From: Mobula hypostoma
Taxonomy: Eukaryota
Length of the DNA stretch: 64,000 nt
NCBI RefSeq assembly: GCF_963921235.1
Contig: NC_086097.1
Coordinates: 744,001-808,000, forward strand
Direction of reading: 5' to 3'
The position numbers and the translations under genes are program-made. Positions 22,677 to 51,570 of this stretch are shown one piece after another. The notes under the pieces were generated by a model that did not search any database, had not been told where the DNA came from, and saw only the letters and a program-made list of their open reading frames with translations. Position 1 is the first letter of the stretch; each line of letters begins with the position of its first letter.

Positions 22677-25600
22677 TAATATCTGAGATGCAAAGGAAAT
22701 TGGGAGTCCTTGTGCAGAACACCCTTAAGGTTAACTTGCAGGTTGAGTCAGTGGTAAGGAAAGCAAAAGCCACGTTAGCATTCATTTCAAGAGATCTAGA
22801 ATACAAGAGCAAGGATGTGATGCTGAGGCTTTATAAGGCACTGGTGAGGCCACACCTTAAGTATTGTGAAAAATTTTGGGCCCCTCATCTTAGAAAAGAT
22901 GTACTGGTATTGGACAGGATCCAGAGGAGGCTCACAGGGATAATTCCAGGAATGAAAGGGTTATCATACAAGACCATAAGACCATAAGACCATAAGACAA
23001 AGGAGCAGAAGTCGGCCATTCGGCCCATTGAGTCTGCTCCGCCATTTTATCATGAGCTGATCCATTCTCCCATTTAGTCCCACTCCTCCGCCTTCTCACC
23101 ATAACCTTCGATGCCCTGGTTACTCAGGTACCTATCAATCTCTGCCTTAAATACACCCAATGACTTGGCCTCCACTGCTGCCCGTGGCAACAAATTCCAT
23201 AGATTCACCACCCTCTGATTAAAAAAACTTCTTCGTATTTCTGTTCTGAATGGGCGCCCTTCAATCCTTAAGTCATGCCCTCTCGTACTAGACTCCTCCA
23301 TCATGGGAAACAACTTTGCCACATCCACTCTGTCCATGCCTTTCAACATTCGAAATGTTTCTATGAGGTCTCCCCTCATTCTTCTAAACTCCAAGGAATA
23401 CAGTCCAAGAGCGGACAAACGTTCCTCATATGTTAACCCTCTCATTCCCGTAACCATTCTAGTGAATCTTCTCTGTACCCTCTCCAACGTCAGCACATCC
23501 TTTCTTAAATAAGGAGACCAAAACTGCCCACAGTACTCCAAGTGAGGTCTCACCAGCACCTTATAGAGCCTCAACATCACATCCCTGCTCCTATACTCTA
23601 TTCCTCTAGAAGTGAATGCCAACATTGCATTCGCCTTCTTCACTACTGACTCAACCTGGAGGTTAACTTTAAGAATATCCTGTACGAGGATTCCCAAGTC
23701 CCGTTGCATCTCCGAACTTTGAATCCTTTCGCCATTTAAATAATAGTCTGCCCATTTCTTTTTTCTGCCAAAGTGCATAACCATACACTTTCCAACATTG
23801 TACTTCATTTGCCACTTCTCTGCCCATTCTTCCAATTTATCCAAGTCTCTCTGCAGACTCTCCATTTCCTCAGCACTAATGGCCCCTCCACCTATCTTCG
23901 TATCGTCATTAAACTTAGCCACAAAGCCATCTATTCCATAACCCAAATCGTTGATGTACAATGTAAAAAGAAGCGGCCCCAACACGGACCCCTGTGGAAC
24001 ACCACTGGTAACCGGCAGCCAACCAGAATAGGATCCCTTTATTCCCACTCTCTGTTTCCTGCCAATCAGCCAACACTCTATCCACGTATGTAACTTTCCC
24101 TTAATTCCATGGGCTCTTATCTTGTTAAGTAGTCTCATGTGTGGCACCTTGTCAAAGGCCTTCTGAAAATCCAAATATACAACATCTACTGCATCTCCCT
24201 TGTCTAGCCTGCTGGTAAAATCCTCAAAAAATTGTAATAGGTTTGTCAGGCAGGATTTTCCTTTAAGGAACCCATGCTGAGTTCTGCCTATCTTGTCATA
24301 TGCCTCCAGGTACTCTGTAACCCCATCCTTGACAATCAACTCCAACAACTTCCCAACCACTGATATCAAGCTAACAGGTCTATAATTTCCTTTTTGCTTC
24401 CTTGCCCCCTTCTTAAATAGCGGAGGGACATTTGCAATCTTCCAGTCCTCCGGAACCATGCCAGAATCTATCGACTGTTGAAAGACCATCGCTAATGCCT
24501 CCGCAATCTCCACAGCTACTTCCTTCAGAACACGCGGGTGCATTCCATCTGGTCCGGGAGATTTATCTACCTTTAGACTATTCAGCTTCCTGAGTACTTT
24601 CTCTGTCGTAATTGTGACTGCGCACACTTCTCTTCCCTGCTACCCTTGAGTGTCTGGTATACTGCTGATATCTTCCTCAGTGAAGACTGATGCAAAATAC
24701 TCGTTCAGTTCCTCTGCCATCTCCTTATCTCCCATTACAATTTCTCCAGCATCATTTTCTATCGGTCCTATATCTACTCTCACCTGTTTTTTACTCTTTA
24801 TATACTTGAAAAAGCTTTTAGTATCCTCTTTGATATTATTTGCTAGCTTCTTTTCATAGTTAATCTTTTCCCTCTTAATGACCTTCTTGGTTTCCTTTTG
24901 TAAGGTTTTAAAAACTTCCCAATCCTCTGTCTTCCCACTAATTTTTGCTTCATTGTATGCCCTCTCCTTTGCTTTAACTTTGGCTTTGACTTCTCTTGTC
25001 AACCATGGCTGCATCCTTTTTCCACTCGAAAATTTCTTCTTTTTTGGAATATACCTGTCTTGCACCTTCCTCACTTCTCCATAAACTCCAGCCACTGCTG
25101 CTCTGCTGTCTTTCCCGCCAGTGACCCTTTCCAGTCAACTTTGGCCAGTTCTTCTCTCATGCCACTGTAATTTCCTTTACTCCACTGAAATACCGACACA
25201 TCAGATTTCGGCTTCTGTTTTTCAAATTTCACAGTGAACTCAATCATGTTATGATCACTGCCTCCTAAGGGTTCCTTCACCTCAATCTCTCTAATCACCT
25301 CCGGTTCATTACACAATACCCAATCCAGTACAGCCAATCCCCTGGTGGGCTCAACAACAAGCTGCTCTAAAAAGTTATCTCACAGACATTCTACAAATTC
25401 TCTCTCTTGAGATCCAGTGCCGACCTGATTTTCCCAATCCACTCGCATGTTAAAATCCCCCACAATTATCATAACACTGCCATTCTGGCAAGCCTTTTCT
25501 ATTTCCTGTTGTATTTTGTAGTCCACATCAATGCAGCTGTTTGGAGGCCTATAAATAACTGCCATCAGGGTCATTTTACCCCTGCTATTTCTTAGCTCAA

Positions 25601-26568
25601 CCCATAAAGATTCTGCACCTTCCGATCCTATATCCCCTCTTTCTAATGATTTAATATCATTTCTTACCAATAAAGCCATGCCTCCCACTCTGCCTACCTT
25701 CCTATCCTTCCGATACACCGTGTATCCTTGGACGTTCAGCTCCCAGGGACATGCATCCTTTAGCCAGGTCTCAGTGATGGCCACAATATCATACCTGCCA
25801 ATCTGTAGCTGTACGACAAGATCATCCACCTTATTCCTTATGCTGCGTGCATTTAAGTATAACATCTTAAGACCAGTATTTGATACTTTCCACTTTGATT
25901 TCACTGCAACTTTATTACACTGCAACTCATCCCAATGGCTACAAATTTGCCCCATCACCCGCCTGTCTTTCCTGACATCTTTATCTTTCCTGACATCTTT
26001 ACTGCTCACTATCTTAGATTTATTTCTGTTTTCCCCTTCCTCCGCTCTGTCATTCCGGTTCCCATCCCCCTGCCAAATTAGTTTAAACCCTCCCTAACAG
26101 CTCTATTAAACTTTCCTGCCAGGAACGTTTGATGGCTCTCGGTCTGTACTCACTGGAATTTAGAAGGATAAGAGGGGATCTCATTGAAACATTTCGAATA
26201 TTGAAAGGCCTAGACAGAATAGATGTGGAAAGGATGTTTCCCATGGTGGGAGACTCTAGGACAAGAGGGCACAGCCTCAGGATTGAGGGGCGCCCTTTCA
26301 AAACAGAGATGTGGAGAAATTTCTTTAACCAAAGGGTAACTGAATTTGTGGAATTTGTTGCCACATACAGCTGTGGAGGCCAGGTCATTGGGTGTATTTA
26401 AGGCAGAGATTGTTAGGTTCTTGATTGGAGATGGCATCAAAGGTTACGGGGAGAAGACCAGGAATTGAAGTTAAGGAGGAGAAGAGAAAAGGATCAGCCA
26501 TGATTGAATGGCGGAGCAGACTTGATGGGCCAGATGGCCTAATTCTGCTCCGATGTCTTATGGGCTAA
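22677..26568 (+). mobile_element. CR1 3' region split by a 3.15-kb antisense CR1
   Basis: ...IPGMKGLSY at 22968 resumes as ERLMALGLYSLEFRR at 26121. Confidence 0.85.
22969..26120 (-). mobile_element. CR1 LINE with ORF1 end and complete but interrupted ORF2
   Basis: ORF1 end (LAGKFNRAVREGLN*), APE 25380-26009, RT 23074-24627 (517 aa); (TTATGGTC)n tail. Confidence 0.95.
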
Positions 26569-41580: not shown

Positions 41581-43957
41581 GAAGCACAATTTACATTTAA
41601 AAGAGCAGTTGAAATACTGAATCAATGGAAACAGCAGACAGAGACAATTGAGTTGTAGTCAGGAATGAAAGTGAGTGTGAACAAAATTGCAATGTCTAAA
41701 CAGAAACGTGCTTAGCCAAACAAATTGTGTTACAGTTGTGGAGAGACAGACATACACCAGACCAATGCAGGTTTAAAGGTGAAATTTGCGAAAAATGTAA
41801 CAAAGTAGGACACATACAAGAGCCTATCAGGCAGACAAAAATAGAAGGACTGTACAGGGAAGAGATAAAGATAAAAAGTCAAGTTGCAGTTTCAAAAAAA
41901 AAGAAGCACTAATGAGCGCGCTGTTGATGAAAAATCTAATAATGATGAGAGTGACAAAGGACTGATAGCCTTGAGATTTATAATGTGAAAACATTAGACA
42001 AGTAATATGGCTTACAGCAAATTAATTAAAATGGAATTGGATATTGGGTCAGCTGTTTCAGTCACTCCACAAAACCTCATTTCAATGATACTAAACTAAA
42101 GCCTGCAGATATTCAACTAAGAACTCATACTGGAAAAAAGATAAATCCTGTGAAAATGACATTCATAACAGTGAAATCCAACAACCAACAATCCACATTG
42201 GGTTTGCATTTGATAAAAACAGGAGGACCAGCATTATGGGGTCATGATTGACTGAGACCACTACAACTTGATTGGAGACCCATCCACCATGCCACATCCC
42301 CTGTAATAGAATTAACTGAAAGCCAATTTTAATAAGTACTGGATGATATCATAGTAGTGTTTGAGGACTGCATTGGAAAACTCAAACATATCAAGGGTAA
42401 AATACTGTAAAATGAAAATGGCACACCCAAATTTTACAAAGCTTTTATGATTCCTTATACCATCTGTGATAAAGTACCCAGTGAGCTAAATCACATGGAG
42501 GCTGAAGGAATTCTTTCCAAAGTTGAGTGGAGCCCATGGGCCACGCCAGTGGTCCCAGTAGCCAAGTCTATCAAGATCTGTGATGATTTTGAGGTCACCA
42601 TCAACCCAGTACCGAAAGTAGATCAATACCTTCTTCCCAAGATAGAGGATATCTTTGCAAACCTTTCTATGGAGGAAAACACATCAGCAAAGCGGATTTA
42701 GCTGACGCCTACCTACAGATGGAGATAGTAGAAGAATCCAAAGTGTTTCTCATGATCATTCACAAAGAGCTTTATTGCTATTATAGGCTTATTTTTGGAG
42801 GAGCACCTGCACCTACACTCTGACAGAAAGCTATAGACCGGGAGCTGCAAGGCTGCCCCAGCCCTCAGTGTTACCTGGGTGACATTGTTATTACCGGTAA
42901 CAATGACAAGGAGCTCCACCAAAATCTTAAGCAGTGTTAAAAATATTAGAAGATTATAGGCTCAGAGCACAATGTCAGTGTGAATTCTTTAAACCACTTA
43001 ATGTGGTCACATCATTAATACACAAGATTTACATAAGGGTCTAGGCCTGAAATATTGACTGTTTACTCTTTTCCATAGTTCGCACCTGGCCTGCTGAGTT
43101 CCTCCAGCATTTTGTGTGTGTGGCATTGAGAAAATTCAAACAGGCTGAGGACATGTCACAGTTGTGATCCTTTTTAGGATTTCTCAATTACTATAACAGG
43201 TTGCTGTCAAACCTGACTACTGTTTTGTTAGATCAAACATTCTTTGCTGCAAAAATAATTAATTACTGGTTATATGTAAAAGTGCATGAATAACATACGT
43301 CATTATTTCAACATGTCATGATTTTGCACCTACAAGACCATAAGATATAGGAGCAGAATTAGACCATTTGGCCCGTCAAGTCAGCTCCGCCATTTCATCA
43401 TGGCCGATCTAATTTTCCTCTAAGCCCCAATCCCCTGCCTTCTCCCTATTTCCCTTCATGCCTTAACGAATCAAGAATCTACCAATCTCTGCCTTAAATA
43501 TACATAAAGCCTGTGGCACAGAATTCCATAGATTCACCACTCTCTGGCTAAATAAATTCTTCCTCATCTCCATTCTAAAAGGATGCCCCTCAATTATGAG
43601 GCTTTGACTTCTGGTCTTAGACTCTCCCACCATAGGAAACATCCTCTCCACACCCACCCTATCAGGGCCTTTCACCATTTCATAGGTTTCAATTAGGTCT
43701 CTCCTCATTCTTCTGAATTCCAGTGAATACACACCCAAAGCCATCAAACACTCTTCATGACAAGCCATTCAGTCCTGGAATCATTTTCATGAAGTTCCTT
43801 TCAACCCTCTCCTGTTTCAGCACATCCTTTCAAAGATAAGAGGCCCAAACCTGCTCACAATACTCCAACTGAGACATCACCAGTGCTTTATAAAGGTTCA
43901 ACATTCCATCCTTACTTTTATACTCTAGTCCTCTTCAAAGGAATGTTAATATTGCAT

Positions 43958-46900
43958 GGTTACACTTGAACTACAGGGGGACCAATATCCTTTCCGGAAG
44001 GTTTGTTAGTGCTGTTGGAGAGGCTTTAAACTAGATTTGCAGGGGGATGGGAATCAAGAGTGCCAGAGCTGACAGTGTGGCTGGGGTGAAAATAAATGAT
44101 GTTAAAAGTTCAAGCAAATCCACTAATAGAAAGGTTGTGAGTGGTGGTAAAAATCTTCTGAGCCGTATATATTTCAATGCTAGGAGTATTGCGGGGAAGG
44201 CGGATGAGTTGAGGGCATGGATTGACACGTGGAATTATGACGTTATAGCAATTAGTGAAACTTGGCTACAGGAGGGGCAGGACTGGCAGCTTAATATTCC
44301 AGGGTTCCGATGTTTCAGATGAGATCGAGGCAGAGGAATGAAAGGTGGGGGAGTAGCATTGCTTGTTAGGGAAAATATTACAGCAGTGCTCAGGCAGGAC
44401 AGATTAGAGGGCTTGTCTACTGAGTCCTTATGGGTGGAGCTGAGAAACAGGAAAGGTATGGCCATATTAGTGGGATTGTATTACAGACCACCCAATAGTC
44501 AACGAGAATTGGAAGAGCAAATCTGCAGCGAGATAGCAGGCAACTGCAGGAAACATAAAGTTGTGGGGGTAAGGGATTTTAATTTTCCATATATTGATTG
44601 GGACTCCCATACTGTTAGGGGTCTAGATGGTTTAGAGTTTGTAAAATGTGTTCAGGAAAGTTTTCTAAATCAATATATAGAGGGACCAACTAGAGGGGAT
44701 GCGATATTGAATCTCCTGTTAGGAAACGAGTTAGGACAAGTGCTCCTGTGTAGGGGAGCACTTTGGTTCCAGTGATCATAACACCATTACTTTCAACTTG
44801 ATCATGGACAAGGATAGATCTGGTCCTAGGGCTGAGGTTCTGAACTGGAAGAAGGCCAAATTTGAAGAAATGAGAAAGGATCTAAAAAGCGTGGATTGGG
44901 ACAGGTTGTTCTCTGGCAAAGATGTGATCGGTAGGTGGGAAGCCTTCAAAGGAGAAATTTTGAGAGTGCAGAATTTGTATGTTCCTGTCAGGATTAAAGG
45001 CAAAGTGAATAGGAATAAGGAACCTTGGTTCTCAAGGGATATTACAACTCTGATAAAGAAGAAGAGGGAGTTGTATGACATGTATAGGAAACAGGGAGTA
45101 AATAAAGTGCTTGAGGAGTATAAGAAGTGCAATAAAATACTTAAGAAAGAAATCAGGAAGGCTAAAAGACATAAGGTTGCCTTGGCAGTCAAGGTGAAGG
45201 ATAATCCAAAGAGCCTTTACAGGTATATTAAGAGCAAAAGGATTGTAAGGGATAGAATTGGTCCTCTTGAGATCAGAGTGGTCGGCCATGTGCGGAACCA
45301 AAGGAAATGGGGGAGATCTTAAATAGGTTTTTTGCGTCTGTATTTACTAAGGAAACTGGCATGAAGCCTATGGAATTAAGGGAAACAAGTAGTGAGATCA
45401 TGGAAACTGTACAGATCGAAAAGGAGGAGGTGCTTGCTGTCTTGAGGAAAATTAAAGTGGATAAATCCCCGGGACCTGACAGGGTGTTCCCTCAGACCTT
45501 GAAGGAGACTAGTGTTGAAATTGCAGGGGCCCTGGCAGAAATATTTAAAATGTCGCTGTCTACAGGTGAGGTGCCGGAGGATTGGAGAGTGGCTAATGTT
45601 GTTCCGTTGTTTAAAAAAGGATCGAAAAGTAATCCGGGAAATTATAGGCCAGTAAGTTTAACATCAGTAGTAGGTAAGTTATTGGAGGGAGTACTTAGAG
45701 ACAGAATCTACAAGCATTTGGATAGACAGGGACTTATTAGGGAGAGTCAACATGGCTTTGTGTGTGGTAGATCATGTTTGACCAATCTATTGGAGTTTTT
45801 CGAGGAGGTTACCAGGAAAGTCGATGAAGGGAAGGCAGTGGATATTGTCTACATAGACTTCAGTAAGGCTTTTGACAAGGTCCCGCATGGGAGGTGAGTT
45901 AGGAAGATTCAGTCGCTAGGTATACATGGAGAGGTGGTAAATTGGATTAGACATTGGCTCAATGGAAGAAGACAAAGAGTGGTAGTAGAAAATTGCTTCT
46001 CCGAGTGGAGGCCTGTGACTAGTGGTGTGCCACAGGGATCAGTGCTAGGTCGATTGTTATTTGTCATCTATATCAATGATCAGGATGATAATGTGGTAAA
46101 TTGGATCAGAAAATTTGCTGATGATACAAAGATTGGAGGTGTAGTAGACAGTGAGGAAGGTTTTCAGAGCCTGCAGAGGGAGTTGGACCAGCTGGAAAAA
46201 TGGGCTGAAAAATGGCAGATGGAGTTTAATACTGACAAGTGTGAGGTATTGCATGTTGGAAGGACAAACCAAGGTAGAACATACAGGGTTAATGTTAAGG
46301 CACTGAGGAGTGCAGTAGAACAGAGGGATCTGGGAATACAGATACAAAATTCCCTAAAAGTGATGTCACAGGTAGATAGGGTCGTAAAGAGAGCTTTTGG
46401 TACATGGGCCTTTATTAATCAAAGTATTGAGTATAAGAGCTGGAATGTTATGATGAGGTTGTATAAGGCATTGGTGAGGCCGAATCTGGAGTATTGTGTT
46501 CAGTTTTGGCCACCAAATTACAGAGAGGATATTAATAAGGTTGAAAGAGTGCAGAGAAGGTTTACAAGGATGTTGCCAGGACTTGAGAAACTCAGTTACA
46601 GAGAAAGGTTGAATAGGTTAGGACTTTATTCCCTGGAGCATAGAAGAATAAGGGGAGATTTGGTAGAGGTATATAAAATTATGATGGGTATAGATAGAGT
46701 GAATGCAAGCAGGCTTTTTCCACTGAGGCAAGGGAAGGAAAAAACCAGAGGACATGGGTTAAGGGTGAGGGGGGAAAAGTTTAAAGGGAACATTAGCGGA
46801 GGCTTCTTCACACAGAGAGTGGTGGGAGTATGGAATGAGCTGCCAGATAAGGTGGTAAATGCGGGTTCTTTTTTAACATTTAAGAATAAATTGGACAGAT

Positions 46901-47020
46901 ACATGGATGGGAGGTGTATGGAGGGATATGGTCTGTGTGCAGGTCAGTGGGACTAGGCAGAAAATGGTTCGGCACAGCCAAGAAGGGCCAAAGGGCCTGT
47001 TTCTGTGCTGTAGTTTCTAT
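43958..47020 (+). mobile_element. CR1 LINE with ORF1 esterase C-terminus and whole ORF2 (interrupted)
   Basis: GLHLNYRGTNILSGRFVSAVGEALN* (stop 44032), APE 44047-44775, RT 45307-46956. Confidence 0.95.
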
Positions 47021-47835
47021 TGTTTGTCTTCCTCACCACAGACTCAACAAGGATTCCCAAGTCCCTTTGCACCTCAGTTTTTTTTTGTATTTACTCCCCA
47101 TTTAGAAAATAGTCAACCCCTTCATTTCTTGTAGCAAAGTGCATGACCATACACTTCCTGACACTGCAGTCCATCTGTCATTTCATTGCCCATTCTCTAA
47201 TTCTATCGAAGCCTTTCTGTAGCCTCTAGTTCCTCAAAGCTACCTACCACTCCACCTGAGTATCATATGCAAGCTATGCAACAAAGCCATCAACTCCATC
47301 ATCCAAATCATTGACATATAACGTAAAAAGAATCAGTCCCAACACAGACCCTTGTGGAACACCACCAGTCACTGGCAGCTAGCCAGAAAAGGCTCCCTTT
47401 ATTCCCACTCTTTGCCTCCTGCCAATCAGTCACAGCTTTATCCATGCTAGTCTTTCTTGTAATACCATGGGCTCATAGCTTGCTAAGCAGCCTCATGTGT
47501 GGCACCTTGTCAAAGGCCTTCTGAAAATCCAAGTACACTATATCCACTGATATTCCTTTGTCTATCCTGCTTGCTATTTCTTCAAAGAATTTCAACTGAT
47601 TTGTCAGGCATGATTTTCCGTTCAGGAAATCATGTTGACTAAGGCCCTTTTTATTATGTGCCTGCAAGTACCCTGAAACCCCATCCTTAATAATCAACAC
47701 CAACCACAGAGGTCAGACTAACTGGCGTATAATTCCCCTTCTTCGCTCCCTTCTTGAAGAGTGGAGTGACATTTGCAATTTTCCAGTCTTCTGGAACCAT
47801 TCCAGAATCTAGTGATTATAAAAAGGTCATTACTA

Positions 47836-50800
47836 ATTAGATTAGATTAGATTAGATTATGAGGACATGCAGTCCTCTTTTATTGTCATTTAGTAATGCA
47901 TGCATTAAGAAATGATACGTTTTTCCAGAATGATATCACAGAAACACATGACAAATGGACATAAAAACTAACAAAACCACATAACCTGTACAGATTGGAT
48001 TGGTTGCACCTGAACCCGAGGGGGAGCAGTATCCTTGCAGGTAGGTTTGCTAGCATGGTTCGGGAGGGTTTAAACTAATTTGCAAGTGGGATGGGACCCG
48101 GAGCGATAGAGCAGTGAAAGAAGTGCATGGAGTAAAGCCAGATCTAACATACAGAGAGGCTTTGAGGAAAGAGAAGCAGAATAAAGGGTGTAAAGGTAGG
48201 AAGGCAGAAAGCCTGAAGTGTGTGTACCTCAATGCAAGAAGCATCAGGAACAAAGGTGATGAACTGAGAGCTTGGATACATACATGGAATTATGATGTAG
48301 TGGCCATTGCAGAGATTTGGCTGGTACCAGGGCAGGAATGGATTATCAATATTCCTGGATTTCAGTGCTTTAAAAGGGATAGTGGTGGGGGGGGGGAAGG
48401 GGAGGAGGGGTGGCATTACTGGTCAGAGATACTATTACAGCTACAGAAGGGGTGGGTAATGTAGCAGGATCCTCTTTTGAGTCAGTATGGCTGGAAGTCA
48501 GGAACAGGAAGGGAGCAGTTACTCTATTGGGGGTATTCCATAGGCCTCCTGGTAGCAGCAGAGATACAGAGGAGCAGATTGGGAGGCAGATTTTGGAAAG
48601 GTTCAAAAATAACAGGGTTGTTATCATGGGTGACTTTAACTTCCCTAATATTGATTGGCACCTGATTAGTTCCAAGGGTTTAGATGGGGCACAGTTTGTT
48701 AAGTGTGTCCAGGACAGATTCCTGTCACAGTATGTGGACAGGTCGACTAGGGGGAATGCCATACTAGATCTAGTACTAGGTAATGAACCGGGTTAGGTCA
48801 CAGATCTCTCAGTGGGTGAGCATCCGGGGGTCAGTGACCACCGCTCCCTGTTCTTCAGCATTATCATGGAAAAGGATAGAATCAGAGAGGACAGGAAAAT
48901 TTTTAATTGGGGAAGGGCAAATTATGAAGCTATTCGGCTAGAACTTGCGGGTGTGAATTGGGATGATGTTTTTGCAGGGAAATGTACTATGGACATGTGG
49001 TCGAAGTTTAGAGATCTCTTGCAGGATGTTAGGGTTAAATTTGCCCCAGTGAGGAAGATAAAGAATGGTAGGGTGAAGGAACCATGGGTGACAAGTGAGG
49101 TGGAAAATCTAGTCAGGTGGAAGAAGGCATCATACATGAGGTTTAGGAAGCAAGGATCAGATGGGTCTATTGAGGAATATATAGGGAAGCAAGAAAGGAG
49201 CTTAAGAAGGGGCTGAGAAGAGCAAGAAGGGGTCATGAGAAGGCCTTGGCAAGTAGGGTAAAGGAAAACCCCAAGGCATTCTTCAACTATGTGAAGAACA
49301 AAAGGATGACAGGAATGAAGGTAGGACCCATTAGAGATAACGGTGGGAAGATGTGCCTGGAGGCTGTGGAAGTGAGCGAGGTCCTCAATGAATACTTCTC
49401 TTTGGTATTCACCAATGAGAGGGAACTTGATGATGGTGAGGACAATATGAGTCAGGTTGATGTTCTGGAGCATGTTAATATTAAAGGAAAGGAGGTGTCG
49501 GAGTTCTTAAAACACATTAGGACGGATAAGTCCCCGGGGCCTGACAGAATATTCCCCAGAATGCTCCATGAGGCGAGGGAAGAGATTGCTGAGCCTCTGG
49601 CTAGGATCTTTATGTCCTCGTTGTCCATGGGAATGGTACCGGAGGATTGGAGGGAGGCGAATGTTGTCCCCTTGTTAAAAAGAGGTAGTAGGGATAGTCC
49701 GGGTAATTATACACCAGTGAGCCTTACGTCTGTGGTGGGAAAGCTGTTGGAAAAGATTCTTAGAGATAGGATCTCTGGGCATTTAGAGAATCATGGTCTG
49801 ATCAGGGACAGTCTGCATGGCTTTGTGAAGGACAGATCGTGTCTAACAAGCCTGATAGAGTTCTTTGAGGAGGTGACCAGGCATATAGATGAGGGTAGTG
49901 CAGTGGATGTGATCTATATGGATTTTAATAAGGCACTTGACAAGGTTCCACATGGTAGGCTTATTCAGAAAGTCAGAAGGCATGGGATCCAGGGAAGTTT
50001 GGCCAGGTGGATTCAGAATTGACTTGCCTGCAGAAGGCAGAGGGTGGTGGTGGAGGGAGTACATTCAGACTGGAGGATTGTGACTAGTGGTGTTCCACAA
50101 GGATCTGTTCTGGAACCTCTACTTTTCGTGATTTTTATTAACGATCTGGATGTGGGGGTAGAGGGGTGGGTTGGCAAGTTTGCAGATGACACAAAGGTCG
50201 GTGGTGTTGTGGATAGTGTAGAGGATTGTCGAAGATTGCAGAGAGACATTGATAGGATGCAGAAGTGGGCTGAGAAGTGGCAGATGGAGTTCAACCCCGA
50301 GAAGTGTGAGGTGGTACACTTTGGAAGGACAAACTCCAAGGCAGAGTACAAAGTAAATGGCAGGATACTTGATAGTGTGGAGGAGCAGAGGGATCTGGGG
50401 GTACATGTCCACATATCCCTGAAAGTTGCCTCACAGGTAGATAGGGTAGTTAAGAAACCTTATGGGGAGTTAGCTTTCATAAGTCGAGGGATAGAGTTTA
50501 AGAGTCGCGATGTGATGATGCAGCTCTATAAAACTCTGGTTAGGCCACACTTGGAGTACTGTGTCCAGTTCTGGTCGCCTCAATATGGGAAGGATGTGGA
50601 AGCATTGGAAAGGGTACAGAGGAGATTTACCAGGATGCTGCCTGGTTTAGAGAGTATGCATTATGATCAGAGATTAAGGGAGCTAGGGCTTTACTCTTTG
50701 GAGAGAAGGAGGATGAGAGGAGACATGATAGAGGTGTACAAGATATTAAGAGGATTAGATAGAGTGGATAGCCAGCGCCTCTTCCCCAGGGCACCACTGC

Positions 50801-51570
50801 TCAATACAAGAGGACATGGCTTGAAGGAAAGGAGTGGGAAGTTCAAGGGGGATATTAGAGGAAGGTTTTTTACTCAGAGAATGGTTGGTGCATGGAATGC
50901 ACTGCCTGAGTCAGTGGTGGAGGCAGATACACTAGTGAAGTTTAAGAGACTACTAGACAGGTATATGGAGGAATTTAAGGTGGGAGGTTATGTGGGAGGC
51001 AGGGTTTGAGGGTCGGCACAACATTGTGGGCCGAAGGGCCTGTAATGTGCTGTACTATTCCATGTTCTATGTTCTGTTATAACATATAGTTACAACAGTG
51101 CAAAGCAATACTGTAATTTGATAAGAACAGACCATGGCACGGTAAAAGTCTCAAAGTCTCTTGAAAGTCCCATCATCTGACGCAGACGGTAAACCTCCAG
51201 TGCCGCAAACTTGCCGATGCAGTATACTGGAAGCATCCGACCACAGTCCGACTCCGAGTCCGTCCGAAAACTCCAAGCCTCCAGCCAGCCCTCCGACACT
51301 GAGCACTGACCACCATCTCTGCCAAGCACTTCAACACCGGCCCCAGCAACAGGGAATAGGCAAAGCCGAGGATTCGGGGCTTGCCCCTCCGGAGATTCTC
51401 GATCACACAGTAGCAGCAGCAGCAAAGCAGGCATTTCAGAAATTCCTCCAGGTGTTCCTCCATGCTTCTCACGGCTGTCTCCATCAAATCAGGATTATGC
51501 ACGGCCCCCGAGTTAACACATACGATATTCATTCGGAACGGCCATGCGTGCCGCCATCTCCTCCTCCCTC
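47836..51570 (-). mobile_element. Unclassified GC-rich non-autonomous retroposon, copy 2 (51077-51570 plus 47836-47985)
   Basis: Begins ggaggagATGGCGGC on its sense strand; (ATTAG)n tail at 47836-47860; homologous to copy 1. Confidence 0.7.
47986..51077 (+). mobile_element. CR1 LINE with ORF1 esterase C-terminus and whole ORF2 (interrupted)
   Basis: LYRLDWLHLNPRGSSILAGRFASMVREGLN* (stop 48076), APE from 48114, RT 49246-51009, (TTCTATG)n tail. Confidence 0.95.

Follow-up and report, generated by a model that had tools for sequence, protein, structure and literature searches.

In a stretch of 64,000 nucleotides from Mobula hypostoma (RefSeq assembly GCF_963921235.1, contig NC_086097.1, positions 744,001 to 808,000 of the forward strand; hereafter the window), the two open reading frames (ORF1 and ORF2) of CR1 long interspersed nuclear elements (LINEs) meet at a compact signal that recurs at the same place in CR1 elements of other jawed vertebrates. 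The signal consists of a T_TTA_AAC heptamer in the codon phase of ORF1, the ORF1 stop codon directly behind it and, after a spacer of 10 nt, a G-rich tract (G-tract), and ORF2 lies in the -1 frame. Judged by comparison of sequences, this junction signal is real and old, reaching from chimaera to crocodile, and its combination of a slippery sequence with a stop codon probably controls translation of the second gene. We tentatively favour a mechanism in which a small share of ribosomes slips back by one base at U_UUA_AAC and so enters ORF2.

How the second ORF of a LINE is translated from bicistronic RNA is a long-standing question, and experiments have been made in few elements, namely SART1 and L1. 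The available parts of PMC13343379 describe CR1-group elements as the dominant retrotransposons of most vertebrates, making up 22-34% of shark and ray genomes.

Anatomy of copy A and its family

The window holds three CR1 copies that carry the junction, designated A, B and C. The features of copy A, identified by self-BLAST, Pfam, contig depth, translation and alignment with copies B and C, are as follows.

47984..51075, + strand: copy A, a 5'-truncated and frame-broken CR1 LINE with an ORF1 stub, an ORF2 encoding an apurinic endonuclease and a reverse transcriptase, and a CR1-type 3' end (self-BLAST, Pfam, contig depth)
47984..48078, + strand: ORF1 tail of about 31 codons and stop (…LDWLHLNPRGSSILAGRFASMVREGLN, then stop; translation, alignment with copies B and C)
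48066..48072, + strand: G_GGT_TTA, a second, overlapping heptamer that is lineage-specific
48069..48075, + strand: the conserved heptamer, T_TTA_AAC, in phase with ORF1
48076..48078, + strand: ORF1 stop TAA abutting the heptamer (TAG in copy B, TGA in a lizard consensus)
48086..48096, + strand: G-tract GTGGGATGGGA, beginning 10 nt past the heptamer (family majority GGGGGATGGGA)
48091..48117, + strand: ATG in the ORF1 frame within the G-tract, 8 codons and then TGA (48115-17), out of frame with ORF2
48054..48464, + strand: initial open segment of ORF2, in the -1 frame relative to ORF1, with the endonuclease starting near 48213 (LKCVYLNARS)
51020..51075, + strand: CR1-type 3' end, a hairpin GGGCCGAAGGGCC followed by ATGTTCT repeats, without poly(A)

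The first-pass annotation of this DNA had read the end of ORF1 as GAG GGT TTA AAC TAA with both heptamers in codon phase, and the -1 frame as open into the endonuclease without an ATG; the letters and coordinates of both readings stand (GAG 48064-66, GGT 48067-69, TTA 48070-72, AAC 48073-75, TAA 48076-78; open frame 48054-48464). In the ORF2 frame copy A translates as ...FKLICKWDG...LKCVYLNARSIRNK, with no ATG ahead of the endonuclease start, and the ATG at 48091 is, as had also been seen, out of frame with ORF2 and soon followed by a stop. Two descriptions needed amendment. The downstream G-rich tract is present, but its letters had to be corrected, and the T at 48087 is private to copy A, with G making up 97% of the family contig depth. 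What had been called ORF1 is a genuine ORF1 end, but only a stub, as homology within the family starts at about 47984. Neither copy B nor the crocodilian consensi (GCT) keep the overlapping heptamer G_GGT_TTA intact.

Copy A is a CR1-type LINE. Pfam assigns Exo_endo_phos and Exo_endo_phos_2 to its ORF2 pieces at 48383-48796 and RVT_1 at 49174-50022 and 50023-51009. The ORF2 frame is broken at a poly-G run (about 48383-48396) in the endonuclease region, which is also the peak of variation in the family contigs, with deletions of 1-4 nt. A short 3' hairpin with short tandem repeats and without poly(A) is what we take to be a hallmark of CR1. Poly(A) is described as unique to Zenon among CR1-group elements, as far as the available parts of PMC13343379 go. 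The ORF1 stub holds a D-x-x-H-like stretch, LDWLH, that resembles by eye the DxxH block at the C-terminus of esterase-type CR1 ORF1s (compared with AllMis_CR1-6a, SquAca_CR1-17a, HypSab_CR1-6b and PriPec_CR1-7). Pfam and PDB searches with the stub gave nothing significant, and a protein word search with the stub alignment returned 0 of 131 candidates; the same kind of search with the ORF2 N-terminus gave one match. No long ORF1 lies upstream of the copy A junction in the window. Copy A is unable to make any fusion because the ORF1 body is missing and, as ORF2 is broken too, it is a dead fossil from which no product is made at the locus.

Contigs of four runs were placed on 47800-48600 (22371, 20053, 1231 and 816 contigs). 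Their depth is low over 47962-47988 and rises from 47989, with loose ends before 47984. Upstream of 47984, 66, 69 and 7 contigs (X1, X4 and X16, respectively) continue with a single shared sequence, which closely resembles the stingray consensus HypSab_CR1-6b. In this consensus and in the sawfish consensus PriPec_CR1-7, read by eye in Supplementary Table 2 of PMC13343379, the upstream part encodes an SGNH-esterase-like ORF1 (…GTND…DGLH…), and section 15 of the same paper, in the part available, gives the esterase as the sole ORF1 type identified in CR1. The loose-end consensus is absent elsewhere in the window, and there is therefore no ORF1 body within the 64 kb. A single-ORF element with the motif in its 5' untranslated region was rejected, since the contigs continue upstream, where the published consensi have an ORF1 of the esterase type. 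In the partial frog gene model P0011, Pfam did not detect an esterase.

The frame relation is stable in the family. Over 47923-48382 its contigs are without any indel at a share of at least 5%, which makes -1 the usual relation in the A family, and the common substitutions make neither an ATG nor a stop in the ORF2 frame. The junction of this family reads TAATT, without an ORF2-frame ATG at the stop, and in the very abundant ray families the ORF2 frame lacks an ATG ahead of the endonuclease. Further upstream, beside a (GATTA)n run, positions 47854-47907 are the end of another very high-copy repeat, with a summed contig depth that exceeds that of the CR1 body about tenfold in each of the four runs.

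Conservation of the junction and the reading frames

The other two junction-bearing copies in the window are the following.

43957..46956, + strand: copy B, an older, diverged CR1, with the junction at 44025-44034 (TTTAAACTAG)
23074..26124, - strand: copy C, with a nearly intact ORF2 in the -1 frame, open from 26093, and the junction TTTAAACTAA at 26078-26087

The motif starts at 48069 in A, 44025 in B and 26087 (minus strand) in C, and TTTAAAC, a stop, a 10-nt spacer and GGGGGATGGG are kept in 3/3 copies, with an identity around the junction of only 64-78% by self-BLAST and about 65% for ORF2 DNA within the window. The string TTTAAACTA occurs three times in the window where 0.65 occurrences are expected, each time at a CR1 junction, and it recurs in other vertebrates; the recurrence of the motif thus exceeds chance.

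All three copies are truncated at the 5' end 25-90 nt upstream of the motif (A at 47984, B at about 43957, C at about 26124 on the minus strand), and the catshark consensi ScyCan_CR1-14 and ScyCan_CR1-1b start in or at it; this could be a chance effect, or it could reflect ORF2-only transcripts or a place where reverse transcription preferentially stops. Inverted fragments of the CR1 3' coding end (…LGLYSLEFRRIRGDL…FNQRV…) lie directly upstream of C (26087-26401, + strand ORF) and of B (about 43400-43800), so that sense copies adjoin antisense CR1 tails, which may reflect nested insertions or inversion at integration.

Beyond the window, published consensi were taken from Supplementary Table 2 of PMC13343379, with counts covering the first 400 letters per entry. 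There, TTTAAACTA occurs 23 times, and 16 of the 23 occurrences sit at the CR1 junction of ORF1 end and ORF2 start, in rows from 10 species (alligator, crocodile, bowfin, bullfrog, elephant shark, stingray, coelacanth, sawfish, catshark and dogfish). All CR1 rows found with the downstream anchor GGGGATGGG (7/7) and all those with a visible ORF1 end found with esterase-tail anchors (9/9) carry the motif, the anchors having been derived from rows already known to bear it, with a bias toward similar lineages. The 10-nt distance between heptamer and G-tract is the same in the published consensi as in the window.

Conservation of the heptamer at synonymous positions, which the first-pass annotation had named as a test of its proposed frameshift, is borne out. 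The codon before Leu-Asn varies (GGT, GCT, GAT, CTT and TGT, for G, A, D, L and C) with a third base T throughout, the Leu codon is TTA from cartilaginous fish to crocodilians, and the stop varies in identity (TAA, TAG, TGA) and is fixed in its position directly behind the heptamer; the lizard consensus, for example, reads GCT TTA AAC TGA. Constancy of the third-base T and of TTA is what a need to preserve UUU-AAA would produce. Because the preceding residue varies over a fixed T, Leu is always TTA and the stop keeps its place, the comparison points to a constraint on nucleotides and on stop position, not on the ORF1 protein. It would accordingly be very surprising if the heptamer were without function, a chance by-product of a conserved ...Leu-Asn C-terminus in copies that are alike through youth: the A-family copies are indeed young and similar, and constancy within the family says little alone, but the same nucleotides persist where ORF2 DNA is only about 65% identical and in species split since the origin of jawed vertebrates, and TTA is one of six Leu codons.

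ORF2 is in the -1 frame in every reliable case, a relation that the first-pass annotation had wanted tested across CR1 subfamilies. It holds for copies A and C, for copy B through its intact relative P0007, for the shark consensi ScyCan_CR1-1a and SquAca_CR1-6c (both open by eye from the heptamer to the endonuclease), for the two godwit ORFs P0036 and P0151 (…WQVFKLDVKGEGG…LKCLYTNARS) and for P0016 and P0152 from two poison-frog species. Each of these godwit and frog ORFs reads the heptamer as F/V-K-L and runs on without interruption into the endonuclease. PriPec_CR1-7 is likewise -1 by eye and open across the visible 100 nt. P0007 was found via the ORF2 N-terminus of copy C and is 86% identical to copy B; it begins MQGDGNRSSRADS… and unites the -1 frame of B (LQGDGN) with its 0 frame (…SARADS). 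Copy B therefore carries a private 1-nt insertion after the G-tract, and an in-frame arrangement of its two ORFs was rejected.

In the frog and godwit models P0016, P0152, P0036 and P0151 the ORF2 frame is open for 21-48 codons upstream of the heptamer, in an extension that overlaps the ORF1 tail and starts with ATG (MVQTTRIW…, MPLSKGEE…); in the window copies a TAG six codons ahead of the heptamer closes this frame. The bird proteins P0036, P0151 and P0089, labelled 'mitochondrial fission process protein 1', are by Pfam N-terminal fragments of the CR1 ORF2 endonuclease, and the label is probably a mis-annotation.

Routes into ORF2

In full-length relatives, the esterase-type ORF1 ends in ...Leu-Asn-stop on U_UUA_AAC-UAR, followed after the fixed 10-nt spacer by the G-tract GGGGGAUGGG, with the endonuclease and reverse transcriptase of ORF2 in the -1 frame opening at the heptamer. 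From this arrangement we infer that a small share of the ribosomes ending ORF1 would slip back by one base on U_UUA_AAC, helped by slow decoding of the abutting stop codon and perhaps by the G-tract, and would read CUA... into ORF2, whereas most would terminate; the outcome would be an ORF1-ORF2 product in the style of gag-pol. The shift may occur before peptide release, giving a gag-pol-like fusion of esterase, endonuclease and reverse transcriptase, or just after it, with the Asn tRNA re-pairing on AAA and ORF2 translation resuming without a start codon or initiator tRNA. On this account, to which we give somewhat less than an even chance, a single recoding signal, composed of U_UUA_AAC, the abutting stop and the G-tract, would have persisted in jawed-vertebrate CR1s for over 400 million years and would shift ribosomes from the esterase ORF1 by -1 into ORF2.

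Slippage is favoured here for the canonical in-phase heptamer kept at synonymous sites, the general -1 relation and the lack of an ORF2 ATG in the most successful ray families. Of the features of a canonical -1 frameshift, the in-phase heptamer, the open -1 frame (also in copy C) and the synonymous conservation are all present, and a stem-loop or pseudoknot 5-9 nt downstream is not seen with RNAalifold or in folds of 100 nt. The fusion by -1 frameshifting that the first-pass annotation had suggested for CR1 is partly supported, as regards heptamer conservation and frame, and weakened by the missing structure, the abutting stop, the TAATG junctions described below and three consensi with odd frames.

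Several observations weigh against slippage. Folding of the downstream region gave an RNAalifold consensus of -4.5 kcal/mol with 0 compensatory pairs, in a model that leaves pseudoknots, G-quadruplexes and long-range pairs outside, and single 100-nt folds had z = -2.08, -0.06 and +1.14, with no stable or covarying structure. The stop invariably adjoins the heptamer, and classic frameshifting needs no such stop; the abutting stop points to termination being part of the event, which fits a stop-assisted slip as well as a restart. An ORF2-frame ATG overlaps the stop (TAATG) in ScyCan_CR1-1a, SquAca_CR1-6c and SquAca_CR1-17a, and the ORF2 proteins P0007 and P0005 start M-QGDGN and M-PGDGN. Among the consensi and ORFs there are also exceptions to the motif, as the eagle consensus AquChr_CR1-5 reads TTTAAATAG, the catshark ScyCan_CR1-13 is without a stop behind the heptamer, and the two poison-frog ORFs read V-K-L, implying GTTAAAC. 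Three amniote consensi depart from the -1 relation when parsed by eye at low confidence, AllMis_CR1-1b and PogVit_CR1-2 as +1 and AquChr_CR1-5 as fused; a single miscount in a homopolymer run would explain each. A frame-independent mechanism with the amniote ORF2 in +1 was downgraded, as it sets these three noisy consensi against the real bird ORFs P0036 and P0151 at -1. Finally, the experimentally studied LINEs SART1 and human L1 use an ORF1-dependent restart, according to the parts of PMC2881922 and PMC3708506 available.

Such a termination-coupled restart is also a substantial possibility for CR1, ranking close behind slippage in our assessment. Here, ORF1 would terminate at the UAR, and the small subunit or an unrecycled 80S ribosome would stay and restart a few nucleotides away in the -1 frame, on an overlapping AUG where there is one (UAAUG) and otherwise on a near-cognate or non-AUG codon, such as the AUU of the copy A family. 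The result would be a separate ORF2 protein, with the G-tract as a tethering or positioning signal. The constancy of the stop position across lineages, with TAA, TAG and TGA all in use, is in line with this, as are the three UAAUG consensi and the Met at which P0005 and P0007 begin just before GDGN. There are precedents in UAAUG of SART1 and in the ORF1-dependent translation of ORF2 in SART1 and human L1 (PMC2881922, PMC3708506 and PMC3894237, in the parts seen), and near-cognate codons are described as usable after long ORFs and unrecycled 80S ribosomes as resuming without initiation (PMC10275272, likewise in part). However, a restart leaves unexplained the perfect in-phase X_XXY_YYZ at synonymous sites over hundreds of millions of years. 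A start codon at or near the stop is present in the three TAATG shark consensi and absent from the copy A family (TAATT) and from the majority of lineages, among them the ray families of highest abundance; with 1 in 16 expected per lineage by chance, TAATG in 2-3 of about 12 lineages is near the random level. The Met starts of P0005 and P0007 are biased evidence, as gene callers favour ATG-bearing copies. Moreover, the ATG of the G-tract, well placed but out of frame with ORF2, would divert scanning subunits, and a downstream structure like that of SART1 was not found with RNAalifold or in the 100-nt folds.

The G-tract itself has the look of an RNA signal and not of a start codon, because its G-richness outlasts the loss of the ATG, as in GGGGGAGGG of CroPor_CR1-3a and SquAca_CR1-22, and because in cartilaginous fish the ATG does not share the frame of ORF2. 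This ATG inside GGGGGATGGG (48091-48093 in A, 44047 in B and the same place in C) stands in a strong context for initiation and persists in lineages from sharks to crocodilians; the ORF that it opens in the CR1s of cartilaginous fish has only 8-18 codons. Inside the tract, GAT is replaced by GAG in birds, a lizard and some crocodile and dogfish sequences. The tract contains UGGGA, the core of the calicivirus motif, here located downstream of the stop. As regards a candidate G-quadruplex built from the G-tracts, the G-runs upstream are not conserved in the crocodilian consensi.

The persistence of the G-tract letters without the internal ATG would also suit a motif kept for a role outside translation, such as packaging, dimerisation, transcription or protein binding, with ORF2 reached by internal entry or from ORF2-only transcripts. 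TTTAAA is palindromic, which could serve dimerisation, the 5' ends of the three window copies and of ScyCan_CR1-14 and ScyCan_CR1-1b fall near or at the motif, and ORF1-less CR1-group elements are common according to the available part of PMC13343379 (section 15). We nevertheless consider such a role unlikely, as it makes a large coincidence of the motif lying exactly on the ORF1 stop, in fixed codon phase, where the ORF2 frame opens, and no Rfam family matches the junction region. A 5' ribozyme like that of hepatitis delta virus, or another known RNA family, was dropped after a permissive Rfam search gave only RAGATH-19 at chance level (E = 0.72), upstream and on the opposite strand. Collections of metagenome, genome and viral contigs, scanned for the exact pattern, returned 0 loci each.

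Comparison with known systems and significance

The -1 sites of coronaviruses and sobemoviruses with U_UUA_AAC depend on a stem-loop or pseudoknot that lies 5-9 nt downstream, and they are not known to have the zero-frame stop next to the heptamer. CR1 shares with them the heptamer in zero-frame phase and a polymerase ORF in -1, but differs in the lack of a predicted structure, the stop abutting the heptamer and the G-tract at 10 nt. In luteoviruses and dianthoviruses a shifty heptamer stands directly before the zero-frame stop with the polymerase in -1, together with bulged stem-loops and long-range pairing. The CR1 junction resembles these in its heptamer immediately before the stop and its -1 polymerase, whereas the heptamer is another one and nothing comparable to the bulged stem-loops or long-range pairing was found.

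For long terminal repeat (LTR) retrotransposons and retroviruses, PMC5009743 describes, in the parts available, a structural or accessory ORF with pol behind it in -1, a tandem-slippage heptamer and a fixed low fusion ratio, and it also names the heptamer U_UUA_AAC. CR1 is alike in having an ORF followed by a -1 pol with a heptamer, in a different class of element. Human L1 differs from the CR1 junction in having a spacer between the ORFs and an AUG for ORF2, and neither a frame overlap nor a heptamer is known there. Translation of L1 ORF2 depends on translation of ORF1 and uses unconventional initiation (PMC2881922, citing Alisch et al. 2006, as far as available). SART1 is described as having UAAUG stop-start coupling with ORF2 in -1 and a required downstream structure (PMC3708506, PMC3894237 and PMC10275272, citing Kojima et al. 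2005, in the parts available). CR1 is like SART1 in being a LINE with a -1 ORF2, and the UAAUG pentamer is also found in three shark CR1 consensi; unlike SART1, the window family has UAAUU, most lineages have no AUG there, and the available parts of these sources describe no slippery heptamer in SART1.

The frameshifting review PMC5009743, in the parts available, mentions only HeT-A and TART among non-LTR elements, and no ORF1-ORF2 frameshift fusion of a LINE is documented in the portions of the literature covered. The motif is not described in the available parts of PMC5009743, PMC3708506, PMC3894237, PMC4316615 and PMC13343379, nor is a slippery site or junction motif of CR1 in the searchable full-text literature, to which classic CR1 papers may add a description of the ORF arrangement. 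The CR1 junction element is thus old, sharply defined and apparently undescribed.

With about 40 nt, fixed spacing and a range from chimaeras to crocodilians, the junction signal offers a handle that can be tested with reporters, and the motif marks the true boundary of ORF1 and ORF2, hence the start of ORF2, for the annotation of CR1 elements without an ORF2 ATG. If a restart takes place, a new restart signal would be defined. If ribosomes do slip, frameshifting of the gag-pol type would extend to non-LTR elements, with a stimulator that is not obviously an RNA structure, and either variant of the slip would give LINEs their first demonstrated expression strategy of the frameshift type, with a structure-free, stop-assisted stimulator.

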